From: Cirrosporium novae-zelandiae
Lineage: Eukaryota
Reading direction: 5' to 3'
Assembly (NCBI GenBank): GCA_026023565.1
Contig: JAPETS010000064.1
Coordinates: 1 to 64,000, forward strand
DNA length: 64,000 nt
Shown: in pieces, positions 21,177 to 64,000 of the stretch
Layout of the letters: every line of letters starts with the position of its first letter
Numbering within the stretch: position 1 is the stretch's first letter
The notes under the pieces: model-generated
Told to the model about the DNA's origin: nothing
What the model saw: the letters and a program-made list of their open reading frames with translations, nothing else
Database searches by the model: none
Position numbers and translations under genes: made by a program

Positions 21177-23469
21177 TCATCCAACATTGTGGTGAAGACA
21201 CCATGCTCGAAATGAATGTCCGAATGCTTCAATTTCATCAACTTGATTTTTCCCACCAAAAAAGATTACTCTTTCGTAGTCAGGATCAGAGGAGTTGGCC
21301 ATTTCATAAACCTTAGATACCTGGACCGTCTTGAGATGGTCATTTTTTAAAATGGCCAATGTCTGTTCTTTACTGTCCAATTCTGGGAAATGACCTCCTG
21401 CTACGAGTCTAGCTTGCTCCTGAATCAAATTTTCCTCGTTTAGTACTTTCATATATCTCCCGGTCTTGAATTGGAAAAAGGCAACTTGAGTTTCCCGGAG
21501 GCATTGCGTTGACAAATCTCTTAATTGTCTCGTGACGGCAGCCTCTGTCGTAGGAGGTCCTTGGTCCACCGAAACAATAACTTCTTCTGGATTAGATGGG
21601 ACCAAGGAACTATTAATCGCTGCTTCATTTTCACGTTCACTTCTACAACCACTTAAAACTTCCATGCCTTCGTCTTCCATATTTTGATCCTCATTATCTC
21701 CAAAAGCTTGGCCTTCCTGTGGAACTTCGCTATCTAGGAGGGATTCAATATCGGAGACTGTTTCAGGAATCAGATTGCCTGAAGGAAAGGGCGGGGAAGC
21801 TTCGTGGCCAAAAAAAGCATGAAATATATCATGTTTGACTGCAAATGATGTGATTTTTTCACGTGGACTCTCAGTTGGATGGTAATCCATCCATTTGAGA
21901 AATAAATATTTTTTATCGCATCGATAACTACTCATTCGTGGCATCCCACATCTTTCATCCACAGGCGCACCTCCAGTATCCACACTTAGCTGAGGAGAAT
22001 TGAGGACGTTATATTCACGAGTATCATGCATCGGCGCATGGCGAGCTTCCCGAATCTTCTCGGATCGAAACCCAAGGTCGAAAGCTAAATTCGCAAAATC
22101 GCTCCAACAACCGTCATTGGGCTCCTTGATCATTGGTTTAGGTTGACCTGGATCTCTTAAAGGACTAATACCAATCATATCGGGATAATGTCGCATACAG
22201 AATAACCAAAGGGCATGATAATCGAGAAGTCTTTTTTTTTCAACGGATTCTATTATTTCTGAACCTTCCTTGATTAAACGTTCACTTAGATCATCTCTGC
22301 TTGTATAGATTTTGAAATACTCCCGCTGAATTGAACTCTGGAACTTTTCAGGCAGCATTGCTTTCATAATCTTTGCACATGGTTCCAGGTAAATCGTATT
22401 TTTTTGGAAGGTATGTAAAGAAGGTATTATGTATGGTATATTCAAGATTTGCGAGAGAATTTCCGATCGATGGTTTGGATTTTTCACTCGCTTGAAGATT
22501 TTGTTGCTACTCATCAGCCTCTGGACCGAAGTACGGTCTGCTCGGCAAGAATTGGGTGCCAGACATTGTAAGTATTCTACAGTTTGTGCATCCACAAGCG
22601 CTTTCCAATCCGTTTGATGACAGATAATTGCAGACCACGTGTTTAAGATAAGTTCGAGATAGTGAATGATCTCCTAGCAAATATATGGTCAGCATGAATA
22701 CGTGCAGCGTGAAGCGGATAATATACTTCTTGGCAATGTAATGGGAGTATCCGATTCAGAGTCCCCAACTTCAAGGCCGGCCACAACCCATAGAAAGGCA
22801 GCAAAGCATCAAATGTTTGGATTAACTGATGATTCTTTTTAAGCTGCCGATAGTTTGACAGCTTTTTTGCGCTGAGACGAGCCTTCCATTTCTTTATGCC
22901 CCACTTGTTACCATGTCTATCATAATAACGAAGCTTCTGATATATATCCCCATCCGAAAATGCCTTAGAATTCGCATATTCTTCGCAGATCTGTGTTTGT
23001 ACAGCATCTGAAATATCTATACACTCATCAGTGAAAGACAGCTTACAATCTATACGCAATACTGACCAGACGTATATAAATCTACAGTCCACCATTGATC
23101 TCCCGGCCTTAAAAAAGTCCGTGCGGCATAGATTCGATGTCGACCGTGCAAACAAGATAATTTCATCCAATTAGGTATGGCGAGATAGTATGGTTCCGTT
23201 TGTGGCTTGAGAAGGTCGGTTGGGCTTACATTAGATTTTTGCAACACCAGATTCAAATCCTCGTCGTTGATGAGAGCAGGGACATGATGCTCCGGTTCTA
23301 ATCGATTACAACCTTGTTCACTTTTGAACACGTTAATTAGACGAGATATGTTGGCATAATCGAGCTCCCGTACTAGACGTTTAAATTGGAGATGCTGTAA
23401 GTCTATACGTGCTGTCCCGCGAAAGCAGGATTGCTTTTCTTTGTAAATCTGGTCGGTTGAACTGGCCAT
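21177..23469 (-). CDS. DUF3723 protein (Starship accessory gene), 2 introns
   Basis: FRGTARIDL, GCNRLEPEHHVPALI, CLHGRHRIYAA, WWTVDLY, EEYANSKAFSDGDIY, FDALLPFYGLW, IPSLHTF, LWLFCMRHY, RCGMP; three ORFs joined by GT-AG introns. Confidence 0.9.
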
Positions 23470-23693
23470 GCTGCAAAGATGGAGATAATTTTGAGATTGG
23501 TTTTTTGCTGAATTGTTACCTCTTTTGTAGGGGGGTACCCGTCCAGTTTTGATGGCAGGCGATATTGTGGTTACACCCTCAGCATTCGGTGGACCTCTAT
23601 CATTTGGACCATATAATTAGCTATCAGGAAACAAAGAATCTGGCGTTGTTGAAAAGAATGTCAATACTCTTCTCTCTTTTGTCCTCAACAATT

Positions 23694-33605: not shown

Positions 33606-33872
33606 GGCTAATAATTTATATAGAGGAAGTTTGATGTCGAGAGACTCGACCATTTTTTTTTTCGTGGTGCAGGTACAAGTATAGGCGTTTCCCTCATAGG
33701 GAGGTTCAATCCAAGGGGCCCTCAACCTTGATACTCCCACCATTTTTCCCCTGAGCCATCAAAATGTTGTAGGCCCGACACTTTCTAAGTCCATGTTGTC
33801 TATAAATGAACCAAAAATGAATTTCAGATCTTTCAACCCTTCAATATATTTTTTCCAGAACCATCGAAGGTC

Positions 33873-35238: not shown

Positions 35239-37075
35239 TCACGGTCGACTGCTTCGGAGCTCAATAGCTTTCTCCGACATTTCTCCTTGACACCAGTAAT
35301 CCAATTCCGATGATAACGGTCGCGGTCTGGTAGGAGGATGGAAATCTAATTGGACAAGGCGTAGATTGCTATCCATTTCACTCGTGACACAATTTTTGAT
35401 TATATCATTTATGACCTCATCTGTGCATGCTATTCATGAATTAGTGACACAAATTTTGAGCCACTTTGGAATATTATACACAAACTTGAGACAAGAGTTT
35501 TTCCTTTTCGGTTGGTAATTTCATCTTTCAGAATTTCACCAACTTTCGCAGGGGCGTATATGGTACGAATTCTATTGTGGTACCCATGAGAAACGACCTC
35601 AGCAAAATATCTCGGGACAAGATAGTCCCCTAACACATAGAGAGATATTTTGAGGATCTATAAGACACATTAGAATAACCACAAAGCTGCTGCTCGGGAT
35701 CTCATACACGGTCAGTATCAGCTTGTAACACTTCATCCATCCATTCGCTGACCCATTCTTGATGACCTGAGATAAATTTCAGTGATGGAAGACAGTTTTT
35801 GAGATTGAAAGCGTTATTTACATTCTTTGTCAAGTTGCCAGACAAGTATGATATATCGAGTCCGAACTACACGATTATTATAGCCGTGCACAAGTTCTTT
35901 CAGATAAGGCAAATGGCCCGCAATTCCGATACCAGTTGCAAACATGATGATTGTACCGAAAGAACCGAAATCGTGAGATACTCCATAGGGTCCATCAATG
36001 ATGGTCAGTGGCAACTGGTCTCGGTATCTCAAAAGTCGAGCGGTAAAGCCTTTTCGGCATTGAACCAAGCAAGCAATCTGTAGACTGTTGCCCTCGCCTT
36101 GGTTCCACCAAATCACCATGAAAGGGTGGTTTTGAAAAGCTCCCCAGAAGCCAACTCCTGGCATACACAATAGCACATATTGCCCCGCTCTAACATTCCA
36201 TTCCCTAGGAACGGCCAAGGTAATTTTTAAAGCATCAGCATCAGTAGAAGAAATTCTGGCCCTTGCAAAAGGCCTATGAGATAAAAGGTTCCTGAAAATC
36301 AATATACCCCAGTGAACAACCGTTGAGCAGGACCAGAAACCGATACCACCAAGCAGAAATACCATGTTTATCCCTTTTTTCTGTCGATTGTATCGCCAAA
36401 GAGCGACAATGGTGATAATAGAGAGCACCATATGACATTGGAGGAAGATCTCATAGGCGAATCTTCGGAAGAAAGCTAAGGATATAACACCTATCAACAG
36501 CATAGCAGAACCACTCTAATAAATATATATATTAGCCTCAGTAAATAGAATCGTAGAAAAAAAACATAAAAGAATCACTGTACTATTATAATATTTGCCG
36601 AATGCCAATTCAGTGAGGGGTTACTCAGTAGATAAAGGACAGTGCGGAGAATTCCTTGGAAGATGGCTACTCTACCAATCCATTTATGTATGATCATAAA
36701 GTTGTCGAGAGAAATTCCCAAACAATTCGAGATGAGATGAAGCCGTGATCCGGTGAGAAGAGGGATTAAATTGATCGTGGACAGTAAACTTGCTCTGTCC
36801 GCGAGCTGATTTTTCGAACTTACTCGAATAATCATGCATACGATATTCGTTACAAGATATGTCACAATACCAAGCGAGCGAAATCGAGTACAAGTTCGAA
36901 CCAGTCGAGCACGTGAGAAAAGGTTGGGATAGAAAAGATGCTTTAAAAACAAGAAAGCGAGAAAAAGTCCGATCCATAAAAAAAGCCGAATGAGCAGGCG
37001 TAGAAGAATCCAGAGGATGAATATTCCACAGAGAAAAATTCCGTACCAGACAGTCACGTCCATTTCGATAGGCAT
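35239..37075 (-). CDS. Ferric reductase-like transmembrane flavoprotein (Starship FRE type), multi-intron
   Basis: HKWIGR, AGQYV, QNHPF (FAD), DGPYG, FATGIGIA (NADPH), LVWQ, C-terminal LDFHP. Confidence 0.88.
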
Positions 37076-37314
37076 TGTGCTTTCCAAAGCAAGGCTTGAC
37101 AGAACGCCCAGATGTCTTAAGAAGTAGCCTAGTTGCTCTATGCATCTTGAGGGGGGTTCATTTCAGGGGGGGGGGGGGAGGAGCTCAGTCAAAGGAAGGC
37201 CGTTCTTTCAGCCGACGGATATCGCCGTGGTTGGTGAATTAAGACGTACCATATTAATATCGAGCATTCGATTAAAAGGGCAAATTATTATGTCCGTTAC
37301 GCATACATTTCATC

Positions 37315-39929: not shown

Positions 39930-40090
39930 AGATTGATCGAGACTATTTCAGCGAATTTCATTGAATATGTTTTGCACTGTTGCACGTACTTTTTCCAAAT
40001 GAGTTTTTTTTTATTTCTAGTGTTTGATAGCCGCCACTCAATGTTAAAAAATATTAGTCTAGGTGAAAAGCATAAATTTGTCTATCTCTT

Positions 40091-40207
40091 TTTGTTATTT
40101 TGTGTAAAGATAATAAATTAAAACTATGAAAATTATCCTAATTATACTATCTAGTCTTGGCACGGAATCTTCCGGAACATCATTGCAACCCCTGTAGAAA
40201 ACCACAT
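40091..40207 (+). repeat. ~115-bp non-coding element, copy 1
   Basis: TTTG(T/C)TATTTTGTGTAA...TACTATCTAGTCTTGGCACGGAATCTTCCGGAACATCATT aligns with 43315-43428 (-) and 47293-47409 (+). Confidence 0.85.
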
Positions 40208-40629: not shown

Positions 40630-41147
40630 CTAGATAGGCCTTCCCCGCGGTCTATCTCGTTTCTCAAAGTCTTCAATTAACTCTGGAGAATTCTTGAAAT
40701 GACTTGCTGGCATCCATTTCGATTCAACTAGGGAATACTGCTGGACAAGGTATTGCTGAATTATTTTTCCTTCAACTCTTTTCTCTCTCTTATCTACAAT
40801 TTCGGCAATCCATTCATTATCATCGAAAAATCCTCCATCGCTGATATCCTGTCAATATTAAGTGTTATAAGAAAAGCCTATACCAGAAGAATCTAGCACA
40901 CTCACCGGAACCGGTTCACCCTCTGAGCTGGTATTATCCATCTGACTATCCAATATGAAATCTGCCAATGAGGATTCCGGACTTTCACAATCTTTTTGCA
41001 TATAAGCTATCTGGAATGAAAGATGACGAAACATCCGAACTCACATTCTCCGGATGGTTCTTGAGAATTGCCCTTGCACATTTCTGGGGGGAGCAAATAT
41101 GGAGAATCGCCGAGAACTACGTGCGTGTCTTTGATATTTGAATTCAT
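40630..41147 (-). CDS. Small chromodomain-like protein A with C-terminal AT-hook-like RPRGRP
   Basis: Last exon 40848-40630 reads DISDGGFFDDNEWIAEIVDKREKRVEGKIIQQYLVQQYSLVESKWMPASHFKNSPELIEDFEKRDRPRGRPI*. Middle exon has ESPESSLADFILD. First exon is tentative because it needs a 38-nt intron. Confidence 0.7.
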
Positions 41148-41703
41148 TCAGTACGATTGGATGTGTGGCGACTGAAGAGGGGAAAGGGGGACATTCGTTA
41201 ATAGTAATTAGTGACAAGTAAGATCTGCTGGCAAGCCTGGTCTTAAAAGTAGAAAAATGATTCACCAAGCATAGAAACAATGCGATAATCTGTGTATCGA
41301 CGAATATTACAGACATGATTCGGGTCTACTATTTTTAGGGTAGGCAGATGACAACAAGTATTAACCAAGGATAGAGGGTTCTGGAACGATATTTCTCAAT
41401 AATTTACTAAGCACAATATTCCTGGTGACTTAAAAGTTAACCAAGCATAAGCATGGTAGAATAGATAGAAAGCTACCTCATTCATAGGGTAAAAAGATAT
41501 TTCACGGTTCTAGATTAGGCCCATCGAATTGTAAAGATTTTTGTAACTTCACCAAGCACTATAGTTTTGACAAGGATGCAACAGTCGTTAGCCGGTATTG
41601 GCCAAGTATAAGGCTCCAACATTCACGAGACCTTTCACAGTTCAGAGCACCAATCCTTGCTGGTTCCCTTGAACAATGGTTCGAGCTGAAAGAGACCAGA
41701 AAT

Positions 41704-42054
41704 CAGTGTTGGCAATAGACTAGACCAAATAGACGGTCTACCATAGACGGTCTATAGACCTTAGACCGACCAGACGAAGCTTTTAGATAGACCAGACCGA
41801 CAAGACCGAGCTTTTTGATAGACCGACCAGACCTTAATTGTCCAAGGTCTATTCGGTCTATATAAATACGAATTATAAGGTGGGGGGTATATTTTTGTAT
41901 TATGAAGTTTGTTAGGGCATCGGAGCTCGGTATTTTATTTTATCTTATCTCCACGTGATATCACGTGGAGATAAGATAGTATGGTGAATCGAGATTCAAA
42001 ATTTCTGTCCACGCTCCGCGCGGATTATATTATCCGGGTGTCATGCCAACACTG
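41704..42054. mobile_element. Non-autonomous hAT-like element (MITE), 351 bp
   Basis: 11-bp TIR CAGTGTTGGCA / TGCCAACACTG; perfect 8-bp TSD CCAGAAAT at 41696-41703 and 42055-42062; subterminal AGAC(C) repeats. Confidence 0.92.
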
Positions 42055-42244
42055 CCAGAAATCAATTGTTACTTGGAATCAAAAAAATTGAAATGATATT
42101 AATAGTGTGATGAACAGTCTATATGAAGGAGTGGGGTTGAAATTAAAGAAATCCTCATTGCCATAATCAATGATCCCAGCAACTCTTCCTAGATGCAAAA
42201 GCTTATCCTGCATTCAACTAGCTTAGAGCCCGCAATTTTTGTTA

Positions 42245-42833
42245 CTACCATTCGCTATTTCGTGGCCAGAGCTGACGCTTTTGAGACCTTCCTCGCAGGC
42301 TACTCCGCCTTTCGAAATCTTCAATCAACTCTTGAGCATTATTTAGTTGACTTGCCGGCATCCAAGTATTTTCCCACACAACTAGGTATTCCTGGATCAC
42401 TGCTTCTCTCGCCCTAACATTCCTTTTGTCAATGATTTTTGAAATCGGCCATTCGTCTGCGGTAGATTTTTCTTGATTGTTCTGACACAGTTAGCATCAT
42501 CGAATACGACTGAAATATAAAACTCACTGTTAGTAGTCCAGTTTCGTCTATAGAACTTTCTCCTTCGTCATCGAGCATAAAATCCGATATATCGGATTGC
42601 GGGCTTTCGTCTATTTGTGTAGACGGGCTACCTTTGATCAATGTAAGCAATAGGTTGAATAAAACCGTAACTCATCAACACTAACTTTGGTTACTTGATT
42701 CCTCGGCTTCCAGAAAAGTATGGGCACGGATTCTCTGTTGGCGTTCTCTGATTGGAGCGGTTGAAGATTCAGAGTAGATACTGTCGAGTTTTTGCACGGA
42801 TGCACCAATAGTATCATGATTTTGGGATGTCAT
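42245..42833 (-). CDS. Small chromodomain protein B (162 aa, 3 exons)
   Basis: Exons 42833-42686, 42631-42528 and 42481-42245 splice in frame at GT-AG sites. Last exon: DEWPISKIIDKRNVRAREAVIQEYLVVWENTWMPASQLNNAQELIEDFERR. Confidence 0.82.
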
Positions 42834-43314: not shown

Positions 43315-43428
43315 AGCTGTGAACAGGGATATAAAATAATATTCCGGAAGATTCCGTGCCAAGATTAGATAGTATAGCTAGCATATTTTTCACAGGTTCA
43401 TTTCTATATCCTTATACAAAATAACAGA
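43315..43428 (-). repeat. ~115-bp non-coding element, copy 2 (inverted)
   Basis: TTCCGGAAGATTCCGTGCCAAGATTAGATAGTATA...CAAAATAACA is the reverse complement of copy 1 with substitutions. Confidence 0.85.
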
Positions 43429-45574
43429 ACTTCTTCTTCAGGAGAAGCTTTCATCTCAGACGACACTATAGCCAATATTATGGTTTCTACCCTGCACCCT
43501 CACAGCACTAACATTAGTTTGGTCAATCCAAGGTAAGTCAATAATACAGTATGTCATAGTGTCAACTGACTCTCATATAAAAAATTACAATATAATACAG
43601 GCTAACTGATCGGGATCGAGAACGAACATGGTTTTTGATATTTGTATACCATGCCTGGTCGGGGTCTAAGTCTATACTTTATGAGTCCTGGTTTGAAGGT
43701 AGGAACCAAAAATCACATTGGTGGGAAAATAATTTGGAACTCACTTGTCGACAGACCCCTCCTAACTTGGAAAAATGCAGACTTCACATGAACCTGCCTT
43801 TCAGCTAAGCTACCACCCTCTTCCTCGATGATCCAGTCCTCATATCAACTCCGGTCACGCCAAAATAGTACATCACCGAATATTGTTTCTGCCAATATTC
43901 AGCTCTCTCGAACATACTTCAGGCTCTATCATTTCTGTATCCACCGTGTTCTTGATTTTTGTTCTTGTCATCGTGGCTTCTCCTGAATGTATTTTCAACT
44001 CCATAGGTGAAAAGACAAACAACTTGAATTTATTTCATACGATATTAGAATTCTGCGATTATAACCTTTTCCATACACCATCTTTTTTTTCATAATTCAA
44101 CTCCTTTCCAGTCGAATGCGAGCTTTCTGTTCCATGGTAGCTAGACAGAATAGCGAATCCATGAAAGGCTATCGATTGAATAGATACCTGTCTATTGACA
44201 TGGCCCTCCAAATTTATTATTCGTGGATACATTAAAACTAACTCCCCCTATACAGTCTCTATCCTAGTTATATCGCCTATTCAAACATACAGTTGTTGAG
44301 TATGTTCAAACAAGTTATCGTCAGCCTAGGTATTACTCCCCAAAAATATACAGTTGAACACACCTATATTGAACAACATCACGTCTATGATCCGATTTCC
44401 AACGCTATGTCCCGAAACCTTAGGGTTTCTGCAGGAAGAATCAGTGGATAGGTCTCTACCTTTTCAGCGAATGATGATAGGAGCAATGGTGCAAACCAAC
44501 AAATCGGTGCCATTCCTCTATCATCAGATGACTAAATTTGATATGAAAATGGAACCATACGATAACTGCTGTATGGAATACTGATACACCGGTTGATCAT
44601 AGTGAACTACTAATTAGTACTAATTCTATTGAACAGTCTCATCGATTCTAACGGAATGTAATGACTTAAAGATTTTAGGATTAGTTTTGCCATCCTCTGA
44701 AGCCTACCCACCAGCTCCACCATTTTACGACAAAATGAGGATTTTGAATAGATTCAAGAAGCCTGACAGAGGGGTCCCAGAAATAAGGTAGGTATATTTC
44801 TGAGAGACAGAACTCTACACATCATGGACACCTGGTCCAGACCTTAAATGTATCCTAGAATTCCCTATTTGGAAATCCAAACATGCATTTTCAACTGCCT
44901 CTCCGGTGACTTCCAACATCCTCTGTTCATTTATCCATTTGGCCAGTCCCTCCCGCTGCTCTGACACAGCGAAAGTAGGTTTAGCATTCTCATGTCCGGT
45001 TGCACTGCCCTGTTGTCTATATTTGCGATACGACATTAGACCTGACATGCATCTTGTGGCACAATATGCAGTTCAATAAGAGCTATAGTATATCAATTAG
45101 CGAATCAATCAGAACATACAGTCCCTCTACTCATCCACCCAAACGACTCCTCTCTCTAAATGCATCGATCTGGCTGTGACAAATATTTAGTTCATAACAC
45201 GTTGTGTCCTAATCACGCATTGCCAACATTGCCATTCCTCGGATCGAGATCTCATACCAGGCTTAGACCCATGTATAGTCTGATAAAATGATGGTTGTGA
45301 TTGAAGCGGCCTCAATACTGGTCCTGCTCGAGCTGGCGTGAAAGCCTTATATGCATCAGAAGGTATTGAGACACGAAGAATTGTCGGCGACGGCCGTGTC
45401 AGACTTCGGGAAATGAGGCCATGTCTCTACCTTGGCCCAGGGACATCCAAATATATAAAGGGCAGCTTTTCCTTCCAAACTGATTGTTGCTCTACTTTCA
45501 CTCCATTCGGTTTCCGCTTTTTCTCCAATCCTATATATTCATACTTCATTCCAATTATTCAAACATCATCTATC

Positions 45575-47292: not shown

Positions 47293-47409
47293 TTTGCTAT
47301 TTTGTGTAAGGATTGTGAATTTGAATTTATGAAAAATATACTATCTACACTATCTAGTCTTGGCACAGAATACTCCGGAACATCATTATATTCTTACCAA
47401 CAGCCACAT
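47293..47409 (+). repeat. ~115-bp non-coding element, copy 3
   Basis: TTTGCTATTTTGTGTAAG...ACTATCTAGTCTTGGCACAGAATACTCCGGAACATCATT. Confidence 0.85.
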
Positions 47410-51113: not shown

Positions 51114-53580
51114 TTATAATACCTTCTTTCCTTGAATTGTTGGTCGATCTTGCACTAACACCTTAGTTAAAAAAGGAGGTAGGCGACGAACTCGTAAATG
51201 CAAATCATATTTGTGTACAATTGCGATATGGTTGAGGAGAGCAACGACATTCTCAAAAGGTTCGAGCTGTTTACAACAAGAGCAGGGACATGGAGCACAG
51301 TCCTCATGAGAAAGAGGCTGGAGATGTAGGTTCACCAAATGGCGCCTAAGTGAGTCTATACGTTGTTTTTTGGGGGGGTGCAAGCCACCGAGGCTCTTCT
51401 CGCTATAGCAGAAAATGCATCGATCCATAGGAACTTCGAGGGTATCAGGATTTGGCGTTTCATTGCTTGCATTCTCGTCGATATTGGTCCAATCGAACTT
51501 TTTAACTCGACTACAAGGTTCTCGCAGTTGACAAAAGCGGACTAGATTTTGAATAGTCTTGATTCTCTGCATCAGGTCCTGGTTGCCAGTCATGGACTCG
51601 GCCTGGGACCCAAAAAAAGCGTCTTCAATTTGAGCTTGTTCGGGAAACAGGTACTGAGGGACCGGAGGTTTCCATGGATCATCCTCATAATCTGAGACAT
51701 CCTCATTGGAAGCCAGTTCAAGCATTTGATCAATTTGCTTATCAATTTCAATGACCGGCATGGTTTGATAGTAATCTTTCTTTGCTTTGGCCTCTTCTTC
51801 TCGGTGGTATGCATTTCTCACTTTTTTGATCTCTTTGTCTATTTCAGCATGACGACGGTATTGGTCAGTGTCCGTTGCATTCCGTACGAAATTCCGCATT
51901 GATCTCATCTCTTTAAAGAGTTTCTGTTTTTCCTTATGGAGTTGGGCGAGATAAGGTTTCTGTGTAATAGCCTTGCGCTGTTCTTCCGAAAGGCCCTTTG
52001 GTGCTAACGGATCCCGATTCCTATTCATCTGGGCGACAGCCCGGTACAAGGAATCTTGGGTAGGCCGTAGAAGGACAACACTCTGCACATCACGGCTGAT
52101 AAAGTGATCCTGGTAGTGCTTCTCGAAAATCTTAGTTCCCGATTGACCCAAAATTCGGTTTCGTTCTTGGTCCGTGAAAGCCCCTACGTCATAATAGAAA
52201 TTAATACCAAATCATACGATATAATAAACAAAAATTACACAATGACAAAATGACTTACGATTGGCTTCATTCGCCACCCAACGCCGAAAATTATAGTGAT
52301 GAATAGGATACTCGTAGCCAGCATCGACCCCTAACTGTTTGATTGCTGAATTGCTAGTGTTATATTTCATTGGTTGAATTGGGTGGACATCAATACCATA
52401 GGGCGTCTTATCGATGTGTCGCAAAAGGGGAACATTCCGCATCTCATCTTTCCACGGAATGGGCAAAGAATGTAACCGTTTCGGAACCTTTAGTCGTAGT
52501 ATCACTTCTGGTGTCATACGGCGATTTTGAAATGCATGATCGGCATGTGCAAGCGAAAGGAGAAACATGATAGGACAATACACTAGCTGATAATCTTGAT
52601 GCATCAAAAATTTGGTCCTGGGCACTCGGAATATGAGCATGGAATTCAGCGCAAAAGCTCTAGGGGGAAGGCAAAACTGACCCATCTGCGCCTTGTTCTG
52701 AACCTTTTAGGTTTCTGAAATCAATTAATGCAGCGACAATATCACGACCCCCAGACGGATTTCGAATAACAAAAAGTTCGATATCCCGGTAACAAATCGT
52801 GTGAGGCAACTGGTCCAGCCGAATGAAGTCAGGCATGCGGCTATTTAGAGATGTTCTTGGTGTGGGCTCCGTGGAAGGGAGCAACACACCCGGCCGTGTT
52901 CCTGTAAACGCGGAAAAAAGCATGATCAAAGTAATTTGAATCAAATGTCGCCCATTCGGGATGGGTTTCCCATATACCCAGAGTTGATGTAAAAGAATGC
53001 CGAGGTCTTCAGAACTCAAAATGTCTTTCCGCCTTTTGCGGACGCTCACATGATGTTCAGCTCGCAAGCCTTGATTAATGTACTACCAGAACTGTTCAGC
53101 AAGGAAATTCAATCAGAAATAAAAATGAAAATAAGGGACGACAAACCCGTCTTACTTGCACACGGACATCTTCATGCATCCGACGATGAGCAAAAAGAGA
53201 GTAGTATTCACATAATCGTCTCCAGTACATATCAAGCGTTTCTTTCCCTTTCCGCTTCGATGTACGAGCTATCCAGTCCAGGAAATTCATATAGACAGTC
53301 GCTTCCTCTTTCATCAAATATTCGATGTCATCTACCTGCAAATGATTGCAATGCCTAATAGATAATGTTAAATGTGTATCGGGGATCAAGAACCAAACAG
53401 CCTTACTTACTTTTGCCAGTACTTCTCTACAACTTTGATGCCTTTGATAGTAGATTCCTTGTAAGTTGGAGGTAGCCATCCTTTCTGTTTGAACTTCTCT
53501 AGCATCGAATATGTTTCCTCACGGGATATAGGGTCGGTCCAATGCCGACTGCCAGGTGTGCACGAAGCCAGCACAGTCAT
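51114..53580 (-). CDS. DUF3435 tyrosine recombinase (Starship captain), about 5 exons
   Basis: Start MTVLASCTPG at 53580, intron 53410-53355. YR-type motifs FTGTRPG (R), NLKG (K), CPI..LL.LA.AD.AF, YNFRR, RNRILGQ, FEKHY (Y), RDPLAP; C-terminal CIFC..LRRH..H and CPC..C..H..H fingers. Confidence 0.92.
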
Positions 53581-54036
53581 GGAGAATCAAACAAATGTGT
53601 TTTCACAAGACAGAGATGCGGAAAATAGTAAATGAGCATTAGAAATGCTCCGGAAATATAGATCGACGAAAAGTGTATTCGAGTTTGCCAAACAAGATAT
53701 GAGATAAAAAAGTAAGATTTTATTATTATCAAAAGAAAACAAGAAATTTAGTATTAAAAGACTAATACGAGAGAATACCATGGCCAAAATGAGAAATAAT
53801 ATAAAGCGTGGTTGGTGAATTAATGGAGCTAAGGTTGAAAAATGAAGGGTCTACCTTTTCGTGAGGGTATTCCGTTTCAAACATGCCATGTAAGAAAGTT
53901 ACCAGGGATATACCAAGGAATTAAAGCGGCGATAAGTCAAGTTAAAAGGGTATTGGTATGTGTGGGAAAGCCTTAAAAAACGGCGGCACAACCATCCATT
54001 TTCGAAGGTTAATTCACAAACACATAGATTCATATC

Positions 54037-55026
54037 GTAAATTATCGGGTATATCGATATTTATATTTTATTAAATAATAATTTTCGGTTTTTTATTTTT
54101 TATATATTATAAACTGGAGTTTTATTTTAATTAAAATAATATTTTTTTTAATATAAATCCGGTTTATATCCGTTTTTAATAATATTTTTCCGACGTTATT
54201 TATACGATTATCGTATTTCGGAATAATAAAAGAAATTTCATATTTTTATTTAATATAAAATTTTGAATAAATATATATTTATTATTATATTATTTATTTT
54301 TATTATAATTTTTAAAATTTTTTATTTATATTTAAATAATAATATATTTGTATTAATTTTTTTATTAAATATAATTTTTAAATTTTTTTTTTTTTAATAT
54401 AAATTTTTTATATACGTAATTTAATATTAATCGCCGTTATTGTTAATATTATAAAACCCGAATATTTAATTTTTTTTTTATTAAAAATTAATATTTTTTA
54501 ATTTTTAAATTTTATAATCCTGTTTACCGAACGAGTATATTTTTATTTTCGGTATTTAATTATTTATTATTTTATTATTTTTATATAAATATTCTCCGTA
54601 ATTTTCGGCGTCGGTTTTATAAAAATTTATTTCGGAATTTTTGGTATTAATAATAAGGTTTCTCATTTAATTATATTTATTATTTATTAAAAAATTTTGT
54701 ATATTTTTTTTTCATTTATATTATTATTATAATTTTTTTTAATTTTTTTTTAAATTTTTATAATTTTGTCGTTTCGTTTTTTTAAAATAAAGATTATAAT
54801 ATTTAATCGTTTATTTTTATTATAAAATTTTATTTCGGTTCGTTTAATTTATTTTTTAGGCGCTGTCGCTTTTTCGTACCCGTCTGGTTCTCGCTGACGG
54901 CACGCACGTTTATAGCCCCCGATTCTTTCCGGCTATTATTGAGCTTTATAGGTCCTAGATAGGTGTTAAATATTTAGTATAATGGTCGTCACAGTGGTGA
55001 ATTGATTTGGTGGCCTAGGGTCACCA
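54037..55026 (-). mobile_element. RIPed repeat family copy A, truncated at the Starship junction
   Basis: GC-richer terminus GGTGACCCTAGGCCACCAAATCAATTCAC shared with copies B and C; aligns to copy B up to TTAC at 54037. Confidence 0.8.
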
Positions 55027-56627
55027 AAAGTCCTTTTTACCTTTTTTTTTATTTCTCTATTTATCTATTTAAAAACAAGAAGCTATAGATAATCTACGTT
55101 TCGTATATATATTGTGAAAGAGTTACCAGCTTTTGGCTGTTTAAAGCACCGAATAAGGGCAAACCTTTATTCGGAAAACTCTAGGTAAACAAGAACAGGG
55201 GACAATATATCGGAATCTCGGAATTAGTTCTTTATCTATTTCCGTATTAATCCTGGATCTAGAATACAATTATCTATTTATATAAATAATTATATATTTC
55301 AATAAATATATATAAATAATAGATTTTTTTATTTTTTTTATTTTTTAATCTTATTTAATTGATTTATTTATTTAGATCTTATATACGATACCGTTCATAT
55401 AACTGCCCCAGGCCCCTTATATTCTATACCCACAGCTCTATCTAAATACTCAATCCTAGCACTGTTTCACAATATAATAAGAGAATATTATTTATTGTAT
55501 AAAAATAAATAGATTTTTTCGATCCGATATAATTAACTATAATATTCCAAAATTAAATATTCTATAATCGTATATAATTTTGATTAAATTAATTATACTC
55601 GTCTCTATTATATAAAAAATATATTTAAATATTTTAGACTATCGATCCACGATAATTAATATATTATTATAAATTTTTTTTTATATTTCGTAAATAATAA
55701 TCTAATAATAAAATTTATATTTGTTGTAAATAATAGTCTAGGAGGTCCACTTAATAATAGAGGGGCTATATATATACCGCATACATGTCTTAGATGCCCA
55801 GCTTAAGCCTAAAACTGATTTACTAATAAGTTAATAAATCTATATTATAAAAAAAAATATCTATATTTAATAATTTTTAATAAAAATATATAATTATTTA
55901 ATACGCACCCTTTTTTTCCCCGGATTATCTAATAGAACTAATATTTTAAAATAAATTATAAAGCCCGATTAATATTAAAATATAAATATTATAATTAAAA
56001 CGTAAAACGTATTTATTACGTAAATTATACGTATTAAATACGGATATATTACGTAATAACAATTTATTATAATTTTTAAAACGTTTATATAATCGGAAAT
56101 AATAGACATTTATATAAAATTAGATTTATAATTACTTTTTATATATAAAATATTTGAAATATAATTATATTCCGGGAATTATTTCTTTAAAACGTTTATA
56201 TAATATAAATCGATAATTTTCGATATTTATTAATCGATTTTTTTTTTATTTTACAATAATTAATTTTTTAATTAATTTTTTAAACGATATTAATAAATTA
56301 ATTATATAATTAGAATATATATAAATCGTTAACGATCCGTATTTTATAATAAATAATATTTAAGTTATACGTAAATTAATCGAAATCTTTATGTATAATA
56401 ATTATAATCAATAATTTAAATTAATTAAATATTATATTGAAACGAAAAAATTGTATTAAATAGTATTATTTATAATAAATATAATTTTAAAATTATATAA
56501 AAAAAATAATATAATAATATAATTGATATTAAAAAAATATATAAATAATATAAATTAAAAACGAATAATAAAATACGTTTTTATTAAAAAATTATAAAAA
56601 AATTTTAAAGTAAAGAAAAAAGTCTTG

Positions 56628-58750
56628 TGGGGACCCCGGGCCACCAAAGCAATTCATTATTATGACGATCGTCATATGAAATATTTAATATTTACTTAAG
56701 GCCTATAAAACCCAGCAGCAGCGGGGAAAATTATAAATTATAAAGATTTATACCGTCAGCGAAAATCAGACGGATACGAAAGGGCGACAGCGTCTAAGAA
56801 ACGAATCAAACGAACCGGAATAAAATTTTATAATAAAATCAAACGATTTAATACTATAATTTTTATTTTAAAAAAAAATCAAATAAAAAAATATTATTAA
56901 AATATTTTACGAAAAAATAAATTAATATTCGGGATATTTTAATTAAATAAAGGATTAAATATATTAAATTTTGAAAACCGACGATTTTATAATATAATTA
57001 CGGAAAATACTTTTCGTTTTTAAAACCCGAATAATTATTTTAAAAAAACGAAACGACAAAATTATAAAAATATAAAATAATTAAAAAAAATTATATATTA
57101 TTAAATATAAATTTCTAATAATTAAAAAAAAATTATAATAACGATTTAAATATTATAAATCCGGATAAAAATCGTAAAAACCGTTTATAATAGAATAAAA
57201 AATTCTATAAATAAATATTATATAATCCCGATTATTAAATTCGAACAAATAATAAAAAAAAATATATAATATTTTTTTTAATAATATTCTAAACGGGAAT
57301 AATAATCGGATCGTAAATATCGAATACGCGGATAATAGTATAAACGAATAAAAAATTCTATCGTTAATACCGAAAATTCCGAAATAAATTTTTATAAAAC
57401 TGATATTAAAATTTATTAAGATTATTTATATAAAAATAATCAATAAAATAAAAAATAATAAATAATTAAATCCCGAAAATAAAAACGTATTCGTTCCGTA
57501 AATAGAGATATAAAATCTAAAAATTAAAAAATATTGATGTTTAATAAAAAAAAACCGAATATTTAGATTTTATAATATTAATAATAACGGCGATTAATAA
57601 TAAATTAATTAATTTAAATATATTATTTGAATTACGGATACAGGAAATTTATATTAATAAAAAAAATGATTTAAAAATTATAATAAAAATAAATAATATA
57701 ATAATAAATATATATTTCTTAAAAATTTTATATTAAATAAAAATATAAATAATATTTCTAAAAATATTTAAAAATTTAAATAAATTAAATTTAATAAAAA
57801 AAAAATTTAAAAAAAAAATATTTATTATACCGAAATACAATAATCGTATAAATAGCGCCAAAAAAAATACAGTTAAAAATAAAATTCCCGTTTATAATAT
57901 ATAAAAAATAAAGAATTATTATTTAATAAAATATAAATTTAAATGTATTTAATAATTTATATTAAAAATAAATAAAACGTATTTAAAATATATTTAATTA
58001 AAATATAAAAATAGATTTTTTAAATATACGATATATACGGAAATATACGAAACGTAAAATTACTAATATCGGATAATAAAATATAGATCTGCGCGTACGG
58101 GGGTTTATATATATATTCTATTAAAATATATAAATTATTTAGATTTTTATATAATTATTAACAGACAATATTTAACGATCCAAAAAATAAAAATAGAATA
58201 TACGAAAAAAAAATATCGAAAAAACGTTATATAATTATTTTATATATTTATATTTTTTTAAAAAAAAAATCTATAAAATTTTAATTAAAAATCAAAAACC
58301 CCCGAACTAATTTAAAAAAAAACAAAAAAAAAATATAAATGATATCTGAAATATTAATTATATCGAAAATATTAATAATATTTATATCGTAAATAAATAA
58401 TGATATATCTGAATTATAAATAAAAATATTATAATATAATTATTATAAAAAATACGATACAACGATTACAAATTTAGAATTAGTTATATAGATTAAAACG
58501 AATATAATATTATTATAAAAATTTAATCAAAAATTAAAAAAAAAATATTATATTTAATATAGGATTTTTATTGGCCCGAATTAGGAATTTAAAAGAGAAA
58601 TAAAATCGTAAAAACGGTCACTGCTATACGTAAAAATCGATTTAATTAATTATTTTTAATAAAAATAAAATAATATTAATAACAAATTTTAACATTTATA
58701 ATTTAATATGAAAATCCGAACGAATTATTTATATAAATAATATATTTTTA
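56628..58750 (+). mobile_element. RIPed repeat family copy B (possibly LINE 5' region)
   Basis: Starts TGGGGACCCCGGGCCACCAAA; ~190-bp head is the reverse complement of 54835-55026 and 62653-62842; internal segments match copies A and C. Confidence 0.75.
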
Positions 58751-58755
58751 ATAAC

Positions 58756-58920
58756 TGTTACGGATGCCAAGCCACATACATGTGACCCTAGGTCATATGA
58801 CCCACTGTATATAGATCCTCACCTTGTATCTTAGACCTAGCCTTCACAGCTATCGAATACTATATTAATTATATACCTAGATTAAGTTTTATAGAACCCT
58901 ATATTATAAACGTCGTAATA
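58756..58920. mobile_element. Partly RIPed LTR related to the 47964 solo LTR
   Basis: TGTTACGGATGCCAAGCCACATACA start; ends GTCGTAATA (CGTAACA with C>T). Confidence 0.7.
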
Positions 58921-60977
58921 AATAATTATATAATTTACGAAATAATATTCTATTTATTACTGCAGTATTTTCTGATAAATATTATTTTTTGGATTTTACG
59001 TTTATTAATATTTTGTTAAAAAATTTAAATTTTATAATTCTAGATTTTTTAAATATTCTGTTTATAAAGATTTTCGTTTTTTTTTTATTAATGACGTAAT
59101 ATTAATTTTCGATTTATATAATTAATCTGAATTTTTTAATTAAATAATTTTAAATTTATTTTTATTAGTATTTTCCTACTAAAAATCAGATTTTTTGAAT
59201 AATTCGTAAAAACTATTAATTCATTTATCCTGTTTATTTTATAATAGTTTTATTAATCTCTATTTTATTAATATTTTATTAATAAAAATAAAAAATTTCG
59301 AATAATTTACGAAAAACGTATATCTGATTAATGAATTTTTTCTATCAAATTTAATCTTTTTTTATTAAATTAATATAATATTATAATCTAAATTCTATAT
59401 TTTATTTTTTAGAATTCTTTATTTTTTTATTTATTTTTTATTTTATTTATTTTTAGGCATTCGAATCTCAAATTTCTTAATATTTTATTAATTAGTTTGA
59501 GAGTTTTTCCGTAAGTCTTCCCGCAAGCCTTTCTATCACCAAAATATTCAATATAAATCAGATTTTAGAGGACCTCCCTGCCTCCGATACCGAAAAAATA
59601 AAAGAAATATATATATAAATTTACAACAGAATTTTTTCGATTTTATTATAAAATTAATTAATCGGATAATTTTATAAATAATTAAAAAATTAAATTAAAT
59701 AAAAAATAATATAAATTAGCGTTTTATTATAATAAAAATTATATATTCTAGAAATTCTCGAGATTCTAGATTTATTTTATCCGAATATTAATTAATAGAA
59801 TTACTAAATTATAAAATGAAAAAAGAATTTATATTTTATTAATTAAATTTAATTGGTTTTTTTATATTTAAACGTATAATAAAACAAAAATCAATTTTAT
59901 TAATATATAAAAACGCGATTTTTGATTTTATTAAAATTATTATTATTATAAAATAATTTATTTCCTAATAATAAAAATTTACGGAAATATTAAAAATGAT
60001 TTTTTAAAAATCGTTAGAATAATCTAAAATATAATTTATCGATACGCCTGAAATAAATATATTTTATAAACTTTTTTATTAAACGGAATATTTGAATTTC
60101 TGATACCGAATTTAATATTAATAACGTTAATTAATTAAATAAAATATTTTTCGATTTTATTTTAAATTTTAATTTTCTGCAGCGGTATTATTAATCGAAT
60201 TTATTTTTTTATTAAAATTAAATTAAAATTCGGTTTCTGGATATAATTAAAAACGTTATAATTAATACGAATTATAACGTTATTTATTAATCAGAAGATA
60301 TTTTATAAAGAATTTTCGGTCGTTAAACGAATATTTTAATACGATATTACGATATTTTTATTTAATAAATTAAAATTATTTTTTAACGATTATATAGAAA
60401 AATTTAATTTAAAATTTTAAATAATACGTTTCCGTTTTTATTTCTATAATTACCGAAAGTGAATTTAATAAATAAATTAAATAAATACGGGAATTATTAT
60501 TTTTTAGATGTTGATTATTTTTTTATTCGTAGAACTTTTTTTCGTAAAATAATATTATGTTTAAAACGTTAATAAATAAACGTATTAAAATTAATTATTA
60601 ACGAAATTTATTAATTAAAAAATTTCGTATAATCGTAATAAAAATATTTTTTTTAAATTAAATTTTAAAATTTTTTTTAATAATTTAATCTGGCCCGACG
60701 TTAATAAAAATATATTTAAATTTAATTATAAAAATTATTTAAAATAATATTTTAATAATAAATATTTGAAAAATTATTACGTTTTCGTTTATAAAATAAA
60801 TTTTCGTTCGTACGTATATAAAGAAATTCTAATTTATATTATTAATATTTAATTTTTTTTTTTAAAATATATTATTATTCGAATTTTATTTTCCGAAAAT
60901 ATTTAACGTACGATATATTTTAATTTTAAAATTATTATATCGTTTATAAATCGTCATTTAATTAATAATCTCGATTT

Positions 60978-61230
60978 ATGATGATGATGATTATTCATTG
61001 TTTTATATCCATATATCGCTTAGAAGCTATGACGGACTCTACTCGGGGGTTTTTAGGCCCCTTTGTATCCCCTTTCGGGCTTACTTTTAACTAAGGTGGT
61101 GGGGGTTACCCCCCTGGTTCGGCTATATAGCTTCCCCCCTTTTTTGGGTTTCCTAGAATCACCTGACTTATCTAACCGGATAGTCTTTTAGCGCTATTTC
61201 GGTGTTCGTAGCCTATAAATAGGCCCACTT
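60978..61230 (-). mobile_element. LINE-like 3' end with (ATC)n tail
   Basis: ATGATGATGATTATTCATTG..TCCATAT..TGACGG resembles the tail region at 17672-17722. Confidence 0.6.
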
Positions 61231-61249
61231 ATTAAATTAATTATTAAAT

Positions 61250-62842
61250 AATAAATCGATTTTTTTTTAAGTTAAATATTTTAAACGGTATTATTTTATA
61301 TAATTAAATTCTATTTTTTTATAAACGTTATTAAAAACGCGCCGTTCATATAAATAATCTATTCGGGTTTTTTATATTAGATTATAAATATTAAAATTTT
61401 TTATTAATATTATTTTATTTTTATTTTATATTTTATAAAATTTTTTTAGATTTTTATTATCGGTTTTATTTTTAAAAATATATATTTTTTAATTTTTGAT
61501 CGTAAATATTAATTATTTTAATCGGGTTTTTTATTTTTTTATTTATATTTATTTTATTGATATTTAACGTTATAAAATAAAAATAATTAATTAAATCGGT
61601 TTTTACGATTATTTTAAATATAATATTTTTTCGATTTTTATATATAATAATAACCGTTTTTACGATTTTATTTTTTATTTAAATTTTTAATTCGGATTAA
61701 TAAAAATCTTACGCCGAATATAATATTTTTTTTTTTAATTTTTAATTAAATTTTTATAATAATATTATATCTATTCCGATTTATATAATCGATTTTAAAA
61801 TTATAATTATTATATCGTATTTTTTATAATAATTATATTATAATATTTTTATTTATAATTCGGATATATCGTTATTTATTTACGATATAGGTATTATCGA
61901 TATTTTTAATATTATCGATATTTTTAATATTATCGATATTTCGGATATTATATATTTTTTTTTTTTTTTTTTTTCTAGATTTCTAATACGGGGGTTTTTA
62001 ATTTTTAATTAAAATTTTATAGATTTTTTTTTTTTAAAAAAATTAATACGTAAAATAACTATATAATATTTTTTTAATATTTTTTTTTTATATATTCTAT
62101 TTTTATTTTTCGTGTTATTAGGTATTTTCCGTCCGTGATTATATAAAGGCCTAGATAGTTTGTATATTTTAACGGGATATATATAACCCCCGTTTATAGA
62201 ATTTTTTATTCCGTTTTACGTAGTTTCTATAATTTTTACCTGGATCTATAATATTTAGATTATTATTATAACTGTTTTTTTAATTATTAGAAATTTTTAT
62301 TTAATTATATATAATTCTTTTTAATTTATTTTCTAAATTTTTATAATTTTATTGTCTCGTTTTTCTAAAACGATTATTTAGATTTTTAAATCAAAAAATA
62401 TTTCCCGTAATTATATTATAAAATCGTCGGTTTTTAAAATCTAGTATATTTTCTCCCCGATTACGGGAAATATACGTATTATTATATATTTAATTATTTA
62501 TTCTATTAAAATATTCTGGTTATTAATCTATTTTTTTTTAAGATTTTTTTTTTTATAAAACTTTTCGACGACGTTTTTCCGGCTGATTATTTTTTTTCTA
62601 GAATAAGGATCATAGTACCGAATCGCTAGATTTTATTATAAGTTTTTACCCTGGTTCGTTCGATTCATTTTTTAGGCGCTGTCGCCCTTTCGTGTCCGTC
62701 TAGTTGTCGCTGACGGCACGTATTCTTTTAATCCCCGATTTTTCCCCGCTGCTGCTGGGCTCTATAGGCCTTAAATAAATATTAAATATTTCGTATAACG
62801 GTCGTCACAATAGTGAATTGATTTGGTGGCACGGGGTCACCA
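61250..62842 (-). mobile_element. RIPed repeat family copy C
   Basis: Head TGGTGACCCCGTGCCACCAAATCAATTCAC; 62161-62195 matches 58096-58132 in reverse complement. Confidence 0.72.
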
Positions 62843-64000
62843 AAAAAAAATTGCCAACTATTAAACCCGAATAAATATAATAACCATTATATATATATAT
62901 ATATATATTCGTATATATATTTAAATATTAATAATTATTAGTAATACCGTCAAATTAATTCTATTATTTTATTATATTTTAAATAATTTATTTATATAAT
63001 TTTTTTTCGAATAACGGTATCGTGAGAAATATACGCCCCGTCGTTATATCGTATTAGATTCGTATCGTTTATATTTAATTTATTTTTTAGAATTTTTTTT
63101 TGGAATTATTTATTTGGAAATAATTTCTAAATTTTATTTCTATATTAAGCGTCCCCGTTCTGCAAAAATATAAAATAATTAATAAACATATCTAATATAT
63201 TATTATTATAAAGTGATATTTTTCCGCGTATTTCTCGTATATATTTACGTACGGATTACGTAATTAATTATTTTATAAATTTTGAAATATTTATTTCTAT
63301 TTTTTTATTATATTTAAATATATCGTTTATATTATTTATAATTTTTATAATAAATTTAAATAAATTATTATTTATATTTTTTATTTTAATATTTTTAATA
63401 TTTTTAATATTTAATTTTTTAATTTTAATTTTTTTAAGTTTTCGGTTTTTTATTATAATTACGGTAATCATTTTTTTTTTTTATTTAATTATCGGTATTT
63501 TTTATATATTATTTATAATTTTTTTTTTGTTTTAATTTTTATTATAAAATTCAAAATAATTATTCGTTTTTTAATTTTTTAATATTATATTCCGGTTTTC
63601 GAAATAATTTATTTATTAAATTCAATTTTTTTTATAGAAAAATAATTTCGAAATTATAAATAATAAAATTTTTAATTTAATATATTTATCGTTTATTTAA
63701 TTTTTTTATTATTGTAAAATAATATAAATTTTTATGATTATTTAATATTTATATTATATATAACGTTTTTTTAAAATAATATTTTTATTTTTTAAAAATT
63801 TCTATAATTATTATTAATTCTATATTATAAATATTATAATTTAATTCCGCGGTAATTAATTTCTAATATTAGAATATATTCGGATATTATTTATTTCCTA
63901 TATTTCTTTTATATAAAATAAATAATTAAAATAAAATAATTATAATTATAAATGCCGAAAATTTTTTTTTAAATATATAATTATAGATTAAAATATCGTA

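Follow-up and report, generated by a model that had tools for sequence, protein, structure and literature searches.

In Starships, giant DNA transposons of fungi whose DUF3435-type tyrosine recombinase is called the captain, chromodomains have been described both within the captain and in genes of their own. Captains of Enterprise Starships carry a fused CHROMO domain, and a link between integration and heterochromatin has been proposed for them (PMC11162782). A stand-alone chromodomain gene is present in the terminal 3.1 kb, a conserved part, of the Starship Sanctuary, and the Starship Frontier carries one at its far end (PMC12506042, PMC11857905). Furthermore, Enterprise elements are covered by trimethylated lysine 9 of histone H3 (H3K9me3) in Pyricularia, and Starship families differ in their heterochromatin load (10.64898/2026.01.28.702382). 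How Starships choose their insertion sites, and the AT-rich, silent location of some families, is an open question (PMC11162782). Here we characterize two tandem chromodomain genes, termed copy A and copy B, at positions 40630..42833 of a single 64,000-nucleotide (nt) stretch (contig JAPETS010000064.1; hereafter the window) of the metagenome-assembled genome of Cirrosporium novae-zelandiae. Copy B belongs to an unnamed fungal family of small proteins with a shortened chromodomain loop, some of whose genes lie close to captain or other Starship genes. Starship-associated chromodomains, fused or stand-alone, are thus already in print (PMC11162782, PMC12506042, PMC11857905), and the idea behind the initial annotation of this locus is less new than it was first taken to be.

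Both genes lie on the minus strand and consist of three exons each. Copy B (42245..42833) encodes 162 amino acids (aa) in exons 42833-42686, 42631-42528 and 42481-42245, starting with ATG at 42833; its introns span 42685-42632 (54 nt, GTTAGT..AAG) and 42527-42482 (46 nt, GTGAGT..GCTAAC..CAG), the second containing a GCTAAC branch site. Copy A (40630..41147) encodes 135 aa in exons 41147-41045, 40991-40906 and 40848-40630, with the stop codon ending at 40630; its introns are 41044-40992 (53 nt, GTGAGT..AAG) and 40905-40849 (57 nt, GTGAGT..CAG). The introns of both genes were set by eye, on the basis of consensus sites, conservation between the paralogs and the NCBI models, and then checked by a script: for each gene a single GT..AG solution yields the stored NCBI protein. 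The spliced translation of copy B equals P0001 (NCBI M1834_008509) letter for letter, and that of copy A equals P0002 (NCBI M1834_008508) exactly. The initial annotation had called the genes hidden. This holds for the list of open reading frames (ORFs), in which the last exons of the two genes appear as stop-to-stop ORFs of 73 and 81 codons; because of the exact match to two NCBI proteins, however, they are hidden from this list only, and both are annotated as hypothetical proteins (the label of M1834_008509 reads 'MAG: hypothetical protein M1834_008509 [Cirrosporium novae-zelandiae]').

The description of the genes as two tandem, spliced minus-strand paralogs was confirmed. Intron positions and phases are identical in both copies (phase 1, then phase 0), the proteins are 41% identical (E 8e-24), and the motifs ESPxSxxxDFxLD and EW..I.DKR..YLV..WMPAS..N..ELIEDFE, already pointed out in the initial annotation, are common to both. 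Because of the exact NCBI match, the shared intron structure and this identity we regard the genes as real and paralogous. As judged from their sequence, copies A and B are intact, tandemly duplicated gene models, and we have hardly any doubt that they are real chromodomain genes. Copy A ends, as annotated, with RPRGRP: its C-terminal tail RDRPRGRPI (40633..40659, minus strand) appears AT-hook-like from its R-G-R-P core and from the related basic tails of the family. In the terminal RPRGRPI there is no basic residue after the core, and an AT-hook is defined as such a core with basic flanks. Word-index homolog searches with the last exons matched the window's own proteins only, and no chromodomain paralogs beyond copies A and B were found in the window.

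The gene pair is bracketed exactly by an inverted pair of an ~100-nt repeat: repeat copy 1 (40090..40184, plus strand) lies 3′ of copy A and repeat copy 2 (43335..43429, minus strand) lies inverted 5′ of copy B, with 82% identity over 95 nt and 3150 nt between the arms. A third copy is located at 47318..47387 (plus strand). The three matches in the window compare with none in 100 shuffles. No target-site duplication at the repeat was seen by eye; it could be a MITE-like (miniature inverted-repeat transposable) element or the ends of a captured cassette. The spacer between the genes contains a perfect 36-nt palindrome (41942-41977) centred on GATATC with two CACGTG boxes, adjoined by a dense cluster of GGTCT/AGACC words (41700-41880); palindrome and cluster may be regulatory sites for copy A. 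Convergent to copy A lies a Lys/Glu-rich ORF of 417 aa (38676-39929, plus strand) with a stretch, YVKIKWTDGEKTWEPRANF, that resembles the middle of a chromodomain. A third chromodomain in this ORF was rejected: Pfam returned nothing relevant, a sequence search of the PDB found none, and our own chromo hidden Markov model (HMM) gave a 20-residue match only (E 0.03-0.04).

The C-terminal chromodomain of copy B (residues ~93-150; 42284..42457, minus strand) comprises three strands, a C-terminal helix and a short W-ENT-W loop. Against the Pfam family Chromo (PF00385, curated cut-off 25.1 bits) its last exon scores 28.1 bits (E 1.9e-6) and the whole protein 26.0 bits. The last exon of copy A reaches 22.5 bits (E 1.1e-4) and its whole protein 21.5 bits (E up to 2e-4), which is below the cut-off; we assign its divergent chromodomain (residues 79-127; 40657..40803, minus strand) because copy A is paralogous to copy B. 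Pfam searches of P0001 and P0002 identified Chromo only, with no chromoshadow domain, no rve integrase core and no SH3_Tf2-1. A profile of both proteins searched against the PDB had its best matches in CDY/CDYL and HP1 chromodomains (E 4.5e-6 to 0.04). Structure prediction covers copy B only. A single-sequence AlphaFold2 (AF2) run yielded helices only, with a predicted local distance difference test (pLDDT) value of 52, and was replaced by a model with a 46-row alignment, in which residues ~95-150 exceed a pLDDT of 90 (strands 100-108, 111-118 and 123-126; helix 131-154) and residues 1-90 are disordered; the N-terminal half is acidic and Ser-rich. Foldseek searches of this model against the PDB listed nearly exclusively chromodomains (one match is cpSRP43), mostly in structures with an H3K9me3 peptide. 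The probability is ~1 for the first 20 matches and E-values are 0.02-0.36, a weakness expected for a domain that spans 55 residues. VIA aligned the model to the chromodomains of Rhino and MPP8 with Z 8.2 and a root-mean-square deviation (rmsd) of 1.0 Å over 54 residues, and all 50 rows listed were chromo or chromoshadow domains. ESM Atlas scores of 0.84-0.86 are leads at most. The chromodomain proposed in the initial annotation is therefore confirmed as a predicted fold for copy B, whereas copy A stays below the Pfam threshold.

The aromatic cage is incomplete in both copies. By alignment, W95 and W120 occupy cage positions 1 and 2 of copy B. Position 3 is missing: the six-residue loop stretch in which it lies in canonical domains ('KGY...') is absent, and W120 is followed directly by ENT and W124. 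The initial annotation was right about two cage aromatics and a shortened loop, but the second cage residue is W120, and W124 of 'WENTW' is the structural tryptophan of the TW(E)P motif. The loss of the second cage Trp in copy A stands, with Q at this position; the loop of copy A is 4 residues longer than that of copy B. Because two of three cage positions are occupied in copy B and one of three in copy A, the reading of methyl-lysine, which had been taken as given, is no more than a possibility. HP1/Swi6, CBX, CDY, Rhino and MPP8 share the fold (Z 6.7-8.2, rmsd ~1 Å) and the first two cage aromatics with the family of copy B; unlike these conserved host genes, the family possesses neither a chromoshadow or effector domain nor the third cage residue.

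When 1.84 billion representatives were searched exhaustively with HMMER, a profile of copies A and B yielded 54 hits at E <= 1e-3, and only the two query proteins themselves reached E <= 1e-30. The highest scores went to proteins carrying multiple canonical chromodomains, and in eight hits the loop is short as in copy B. A second profile, built from these short-loop hits, retrieved 41 proteins at the same cut-off (E <= 1e-3). About 38 of them are of the small family type (83-242 aa), encoded on contigs of up to 1.86 Mb, and two (P0021 and P0119) are distant, HP1-like and the only ones with PF01393. None of the 41 has a name beyond 'hypothetical protein', and a precomputed Pfam Chromo hit exists for only 10. 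The C-terminal half of the family approximates EEWEIxKIxGKRRxGxxYEYxVRWKSTWLPRSELGNAQxLLxEFEAxxRAQxGRKRGRPARxDK. The short loop W-xx-[TS]-W is present in 35 of the 37 sequences checked, and the positions of W95 and W120 are nearly invariant. The AT-hook-like basic tail noted in the initial annotation is real: among the 32 tails of at least 8 residues, 19 contain RGR and 6 contain [RK]GRP, with a mean K+R content of 35%. Like the AT-hooks of HMGA-type proteins, some tails (KRGRPAR) combine an RGRP core with basic flanks, as far as the sequence tells; unlike in HMGA, the motif is single and placed at the extreme C-terminus, and copy B, like 26 of the 32 tails, lacks the core.

An HMM of 33 family members, with the window proteins left out, recognizes copy B with 64.5 bits and aligns its loop without a gap. 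The best six hits outside the family (P0014, P0019, P0015, P0035, P0031 and P0013; 45.9-59.3 bits) all carry the Ty3 integrase domain SH3_Tf2-1 before Chromo, and P0035 is a full polyprotein of reverse transcriptase (RT), RNaseH and integrase; HP1-like and multi-chromodomain proteins score at most 41.6 bits. For this reason we classify the family chromodomain, from its sequence relationships, as a shortened version of the chromoviral (Ty3 integrase) type. Chromoviral (Ty3/gypsy) integrases such as that of MAGGY are the closest outside the family and share the motifs EWEIxKI..KR, WLP and L.NA..L..F. The family departs from them in lacking any SH3_Tf2-1, RT or integrase part and in a loop shortened by six residues, among them the third cage aromatic; its members begin with a disordered half, end with a basic tail and ride on a DNA element. 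Chromodomains of chromoviral integrases are said, with reference to Gao et al. 2008, to recognise methylated H3K9 (H3K9me) and to direct integration to heterochromatin. By these sequence criteria copy B clearly belongs to the family, and copy A is a degenerate, divergent paralog.

A scan of metagenome contigs gave 338 pattern matches, of which 212 encode relatives; the best 80 loci were taken with up to 10 kb per side and collapse into 48 distinct locus groups. The chromodomain gene is intronless in these loci. Flanking ORFs are not conserved between groups: among 339 ORF clusters only the chromodomain gene is widely shared (53 loci). Pfam searches of 208 representative flanking ORFs of at least 180 aa identified NLR-type genes (NACHT/NPHP3_N with TPR, Ank or WD40), HET, kinases, transposases, OTT_1508 deaminase and polyketide synthase (PKS), as well as DUF3723 at L012 and L023/24 and DUF3435 at L035, L043 and L045. 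In phmmer searches, for which the captain and DUF3723 ORFs of the window and the DUF3723/DUF3435 proteins of the loci served as queries, DUF3435 or DUF3723 homologs were found in 12 of the 48 groups (7 of the 12 confirmed by Pfam; L003 is weak). All 12 are located 3′ of the chromodomain gene (chance 4.5e-4 given flank lengths), and 8 lie within 2.5 kb of it (chance 1.2e-4, likewise given flank lengths). At L012 the chromodomain gene is followed by DUF3723, a homolog of the window ORF 32937-33758 and a ferric reductase, which are the same genes as in the window.

Between the groups, homology at the DNA level is limited to a block that starts ~3.7 kb before the stop codon of the chromodomain gene and ends ~0.25 kb after it, with a sharp drop on both sides. 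This block is 3.3-3.7 kb long, has a GC content of ~0.55 and ends just after the gene (for example L038:2535-6380, L030:93-3900 and L018:6900-10640). Besides the chromodomain gene it contains no ORF with a Pfam match, and parts of it are conserved between loci at the protein level. When ten loci were aligned at the upstream edge, unrelated AT-rich DNA changed to conserved GC-rich end sequence at one point in seven. A 26-nt end piece (<=5 mismatches) occurs in 16 of the 80 loci, once per locus, always on the strand of the gene and 3.3-4.2 kb before its stop codon; no inverted copy was found within 10 kb at the relative loci, and the piece is absent from the window. A small transposon bounded by terminal inverted repeats around the relatives' gene was rejected, as the end motif is single per locus and never inverted within 10 kb. 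Beyond the edge, GC is <= 0.31 in 13 of the 22 groups with a block extending to between -3.0 and -4.2 kb (in three of them fewer than 150 nt are available), and AT-rich 1-kb windows occur in 16 of the 36 groups of at least 5 kb, mostly on the 5′ side. The simplest reading of these sequences is that the block represents the end module of a large element, with the chromodomain gene innermost in it and transcribed inward, followed by variable cargo. In line with the initial annotation, the homologs are associated with captain and DUF3723 genes as well as with an element end that often adjoins AT-rich DNA, and the family is probably linked to Starship-type elements.

Two loci combine the chromodomain gene with a DUF3435 gene that looks full-length and lies on the opposite strand. 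L045 (7030-14221) contains the end motif, the chromodomain gene and a convergent DUF3435 gene 1.7 kb on; at L043 (33-4146) the convergent DUF3435 gene follows 2.2 kb on, and the available DNA contains no end motif. L044, which is the same locus as L045, is AT-rich from 16.7 kb on. Such an arrangement may represent a minimal element of ~10 kb that consists of captain and chromodomain module. At three further loci (L006:1274-1705, L022:7031-7453 and L035:4076-4693) a fragment that covers only the C-terminal part of DUF3435 lies on the same strand, 250-550 bp after the chromodomain gene; these fragments include a CxFC zinc-finger-like stretch, also found in the captain of the window, and look like truncated captains by sequence. 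L034 carries three ORFs of the family on one strand within 9 kb (9746-10564, 13678-13941 and 18451-18675) and is, from the ORFs predicted there, a second case of local duplication of the family.

The surroundings of the pair in the window agree with the Starship context given in the initial annotation. They include a DUF3435 captain beside AT-rich DNA with a composition like that left by repeat-induced point mutation (RIP), as well as DUF3723 and ferric reductase genes. The captain (51114..53586, minus strand) is distributed over several ORFs, in which Pfam places DUF3435 profile positions 2-81 at 52660-53082, 89-210 at 52212-52706 and 212-416 at 51114-52211; DUF3435 is the only Pfam domain seen in it, with no chromodomain. 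It lies at one end and is transcribed inward, its 5′ end ~0.5 kb from the switch to AT-rich DNA. One break of its frame is a clean 75-nt intron (GTAAGT..TAG, 52258-52184) and another fits a 73-nt intron (GTAAGA..TAG). The adjoining AT-rich block (54040..64000) has a GC content of 12-23% and a RIP-like dinucleotide bias (TpA/ApT 1.0 and (CpA+TpG)/(ApC+GpT) 0.52, compared to 0.74 and 1.3 in the rest of the window). In Neurospora, RIP-mutated AT-rich DNA is H3K9me3 heterochromatin. Many inverted pairs (100-215 nt, 75-92% identity; for example 58331-58545 and 61727-61941) run through the block, which fits the degradation by RIP of copies of one or a few repeats.

The chromodomain genes share the strand of the captain and lie 8 kb downstream of it; the ferric reductase and DUF3723 genes follow further downstream. 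DUF3723, FRE, PLP and NLR are given as conserved Starship cargo genes (Table 2, PMC9156397). In the window the DUF3723 gene (21177..23616, minus strand) has Pfam matches of 231 and 90 bits and the ferric reductase gene (35814..37162, minus strand) an FAD_binding_8 match of 31.3 bits; the Ferric_reduct matches of the latter (27.4 and 22.0 bits) are both below the cut-off of 28, and a weak patatin match at 23553-25352 (23.7 bits) is below its cut-off of 27.7. Further genes encode a PHM7-type channel and a fungal protein kinase; upstream of the kinase gene there is a tandem repeat with a period of 54 nt (2266-2481, three overlapping 108-nt copies, 75-81% identical). Rfam gave no match to the whole window. 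Judged by these predicted genes and by composition, the window looks like a Starship-like region with Starship hallmarks; we use this term as the safe one because a second border is not in evidence.

Compared with the described systems, the pair resembles Sanctuary (ROU50, Bipolaris sorokiniana) and Frontier (Alternaria ventricosa), in which a stand-alone chromodomain gene is carried on a Starship separately from the captain. The 'final 3.1 kbp' of Sanctuary is similar in size to the terminal block of 3.3-3.7 kb in the relatives described here. The window differs in that it contains a tandem pair near the captain end and no terminal module, a comparison made from the published descriptions only. 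As in the Enterprise captains, a chromodomain is associated with the DUF3435 recombinase of a Starship; there it is fused, whereas here it is encoded in separate small genes beside a captain that shows DUF3435 only. The consulted parts of the Sanctuary and Frontier papers do not mention the short loop or the AT-hook-like tail, and the Starship literature consulted, supplements aside, contains no description of a short-loop/AT-hook family or of its position at an element end.

The best explanation, which we put forward tentatively and place somewhat short of an even chance, is that the chromodomain/basic-tail protein tethers to AT-rich heterochromatin and acts for the element. The protein would hold on to AT-rich, H3K9-methylated chromatin by two weak contacts, one of the chromodomain with the histone tail and the other of the basic tail with the AT-rich minor groove. 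It would act in trans for the element, either biasing integration by the captain or keeping the element in AT-rich heterochromatin; the arrangement would be a split version of the one that is fused in CHROMO-bearing captains. We infer binding of AT-rich, H3K9-methylated chromatin by analogy, from the targeting attributed to chromoviruses, the heterochromatic nature of RIP DNA, the fused captains and the heterochromatic Enterprise elements. The fusion in some captains also suggests, by Rosetta-stone logic, that captain and chromodomain functions are linked (PMC11162782). Judged from the sequences, the case for a protein that binds AT-rich or heterochromatic chromatin is evenly balanced, and a service in captain targeting seems rather unlikely. 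Captain steering and an anti-silencing decoy, the roles offered by the initial annotation, remain purely conjectural. Unlikely, too, is the broadest version, in which a retrotransposon-derived chromodomain/AT-hook protein is a second core component of a Starship clade and works in trans with the recombinase, directing insertion to AT-rich RIP heterochromatin or anchoring the element in it; its gene would be encoded in the conserved terminal module or, in the window, duplicated near the captain.

Several observations weigh against tethering on behalf of the element. The cage is incomplete in both copies, four family members tested against Pfam Chromo stay under the cut-off (17.7-24.8 bits), and copy A gains nothing from the family HMM (21.3 bits) over the generic Chromo model. 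The tail of copy B is basic and reads LRGRS, with no RGRP core, and such a core is restricted to the 6 of 32 family tails mentioned above. The captain separates the chromodomain genes from the AT-rich border, which is 11-13 kb away, and a single candidate border was found, with no second Starship border within the 64-kb window. The reading frame of the captain shows a +1 change near 52700, with a run of four A at ~52705. No intron candidate with a consensus donor was found at this position; the change could be a frameshift (and the captain dead), an assembly error or an unusual intron, and because of this unexplained shift the element is possibly dead. Furthermore, 36 of the 48 groups of relatives have no captain or DUF3723 homolog within flanks of up to 10 kb, and ordinary genes (ERGIC, Coq4 and phosphoglucomutase) lie beside some relatives. 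The locus counts are non-independent because they include related assemblies and copies of one element lineage, and they stand without a random-locus control. When seven terminal blocks were compared to the window by tblastx, only the last exon of copy B matched; the window pair therefore shares the domain of the family but not the arrangement of the relatives, being near the captain end, intron-bearing, duplicated and bracketed by the inverted ~100-nt repeat.

One alternative is an adaptor that does not read methyl-lysine. Here the chromodomain would bind a protein or nucleic acid and might recruit the captain, DUF3723 or a host factor, with the tail providing general DNA affinity. Chromodomains with an incomplete cage, such as those of plant chromoviral group II and of cpSRP43, bind other ligands; the third cage residue is deleted in 35 of 37 family members, the second is lost in copy A, and members fall under the Pfam Chromo threshold. 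However, CHD1 binds methyl-lysine with two aromatics, and the two that remain in the family are nearly invariant. The closest relatives are moreover the chromodomains of fungal Ty3 integrases, for which recognition of H3K9me has been reported (Gao et al. 2008). We consider such an adaptor quite unlikely.

A very unlikely role is that of an anti-silencing decoy or boundary factor, a reader with no effector that competes with HP1 for H3K9me3 and keeps captain and cargo expressed. The proteins consist of a chromodomain behind a disordered N-terminal half with no second folded domain, as such a decoy would, and the elements adjoin AT-rich, RIP-like DNA. The differing heterochromatin load of Starship families (10.64898/2026.01.28.702382) also speaks for it. 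An incomplete cage would nevertheless make a poor competitor, and a role in integration accounts no less well for the position at an element end and for the parallel to CHROMO-fused captains.

We regard it as equally improbable that the genes are passive passengers, a captured and duplicated fragment of a chromovirus integrase that drifts with no function for element or host. The nearest relatives outside the family are indeed the tails of Ty3 integrases, copy A is degenerate (cage lost, 21 bits), the inverted repeat pair brackets both genes like a captured cassette, and there are no close orthologs, as only the pair itself reached E <= 1e-30 among the 1.84 billion representatives. In contrast, both frames are open with conserved intron positions, and domain, short loop and basic tail are kept across ~38 clusters. 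Moreover, position and orientation of the family gene within the conserved terminal module are constant. All of this points to selection. That the pair are ordinary host HP1/Swi6-like heterochromatin genes which merely happen to lie in the region is extremely unlikely: their predicted fold is most similar to H3K9me3 readers, but there is no chromoshadow domain, no HP1-type orthologs exist among the hits (PF01393 in only two distant ones of 41), and the gene is multi-copy, with variable neighbourhoods in the family and a location in an accessory element.

Tethering to AT-rich heterochromatin for the element would bear on the insertion-site choice and silent location of Starships. With small, easily expressed proteins and a fixed place by the element end, the family offers a concrete candidate for a targeting or chromatin-anchoring factor. 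Its signature, a short-loop chromodomain with a basic tail, is mostly missed at standard Pfam thresholds, and we suggest the gene as a simple marker of the non-captain end in fragmented assemblies. Should the genes prove to be passengers, they would be no more than an ordinary hypothetical gene pair. The family would exemplify the transfer of a domain from a long terminal repeat (LTR) retrotransposon to a giant DNA transposon, and if its product is indeed a second core component, one class of mobile elements would have borrowed the targeting device of another.

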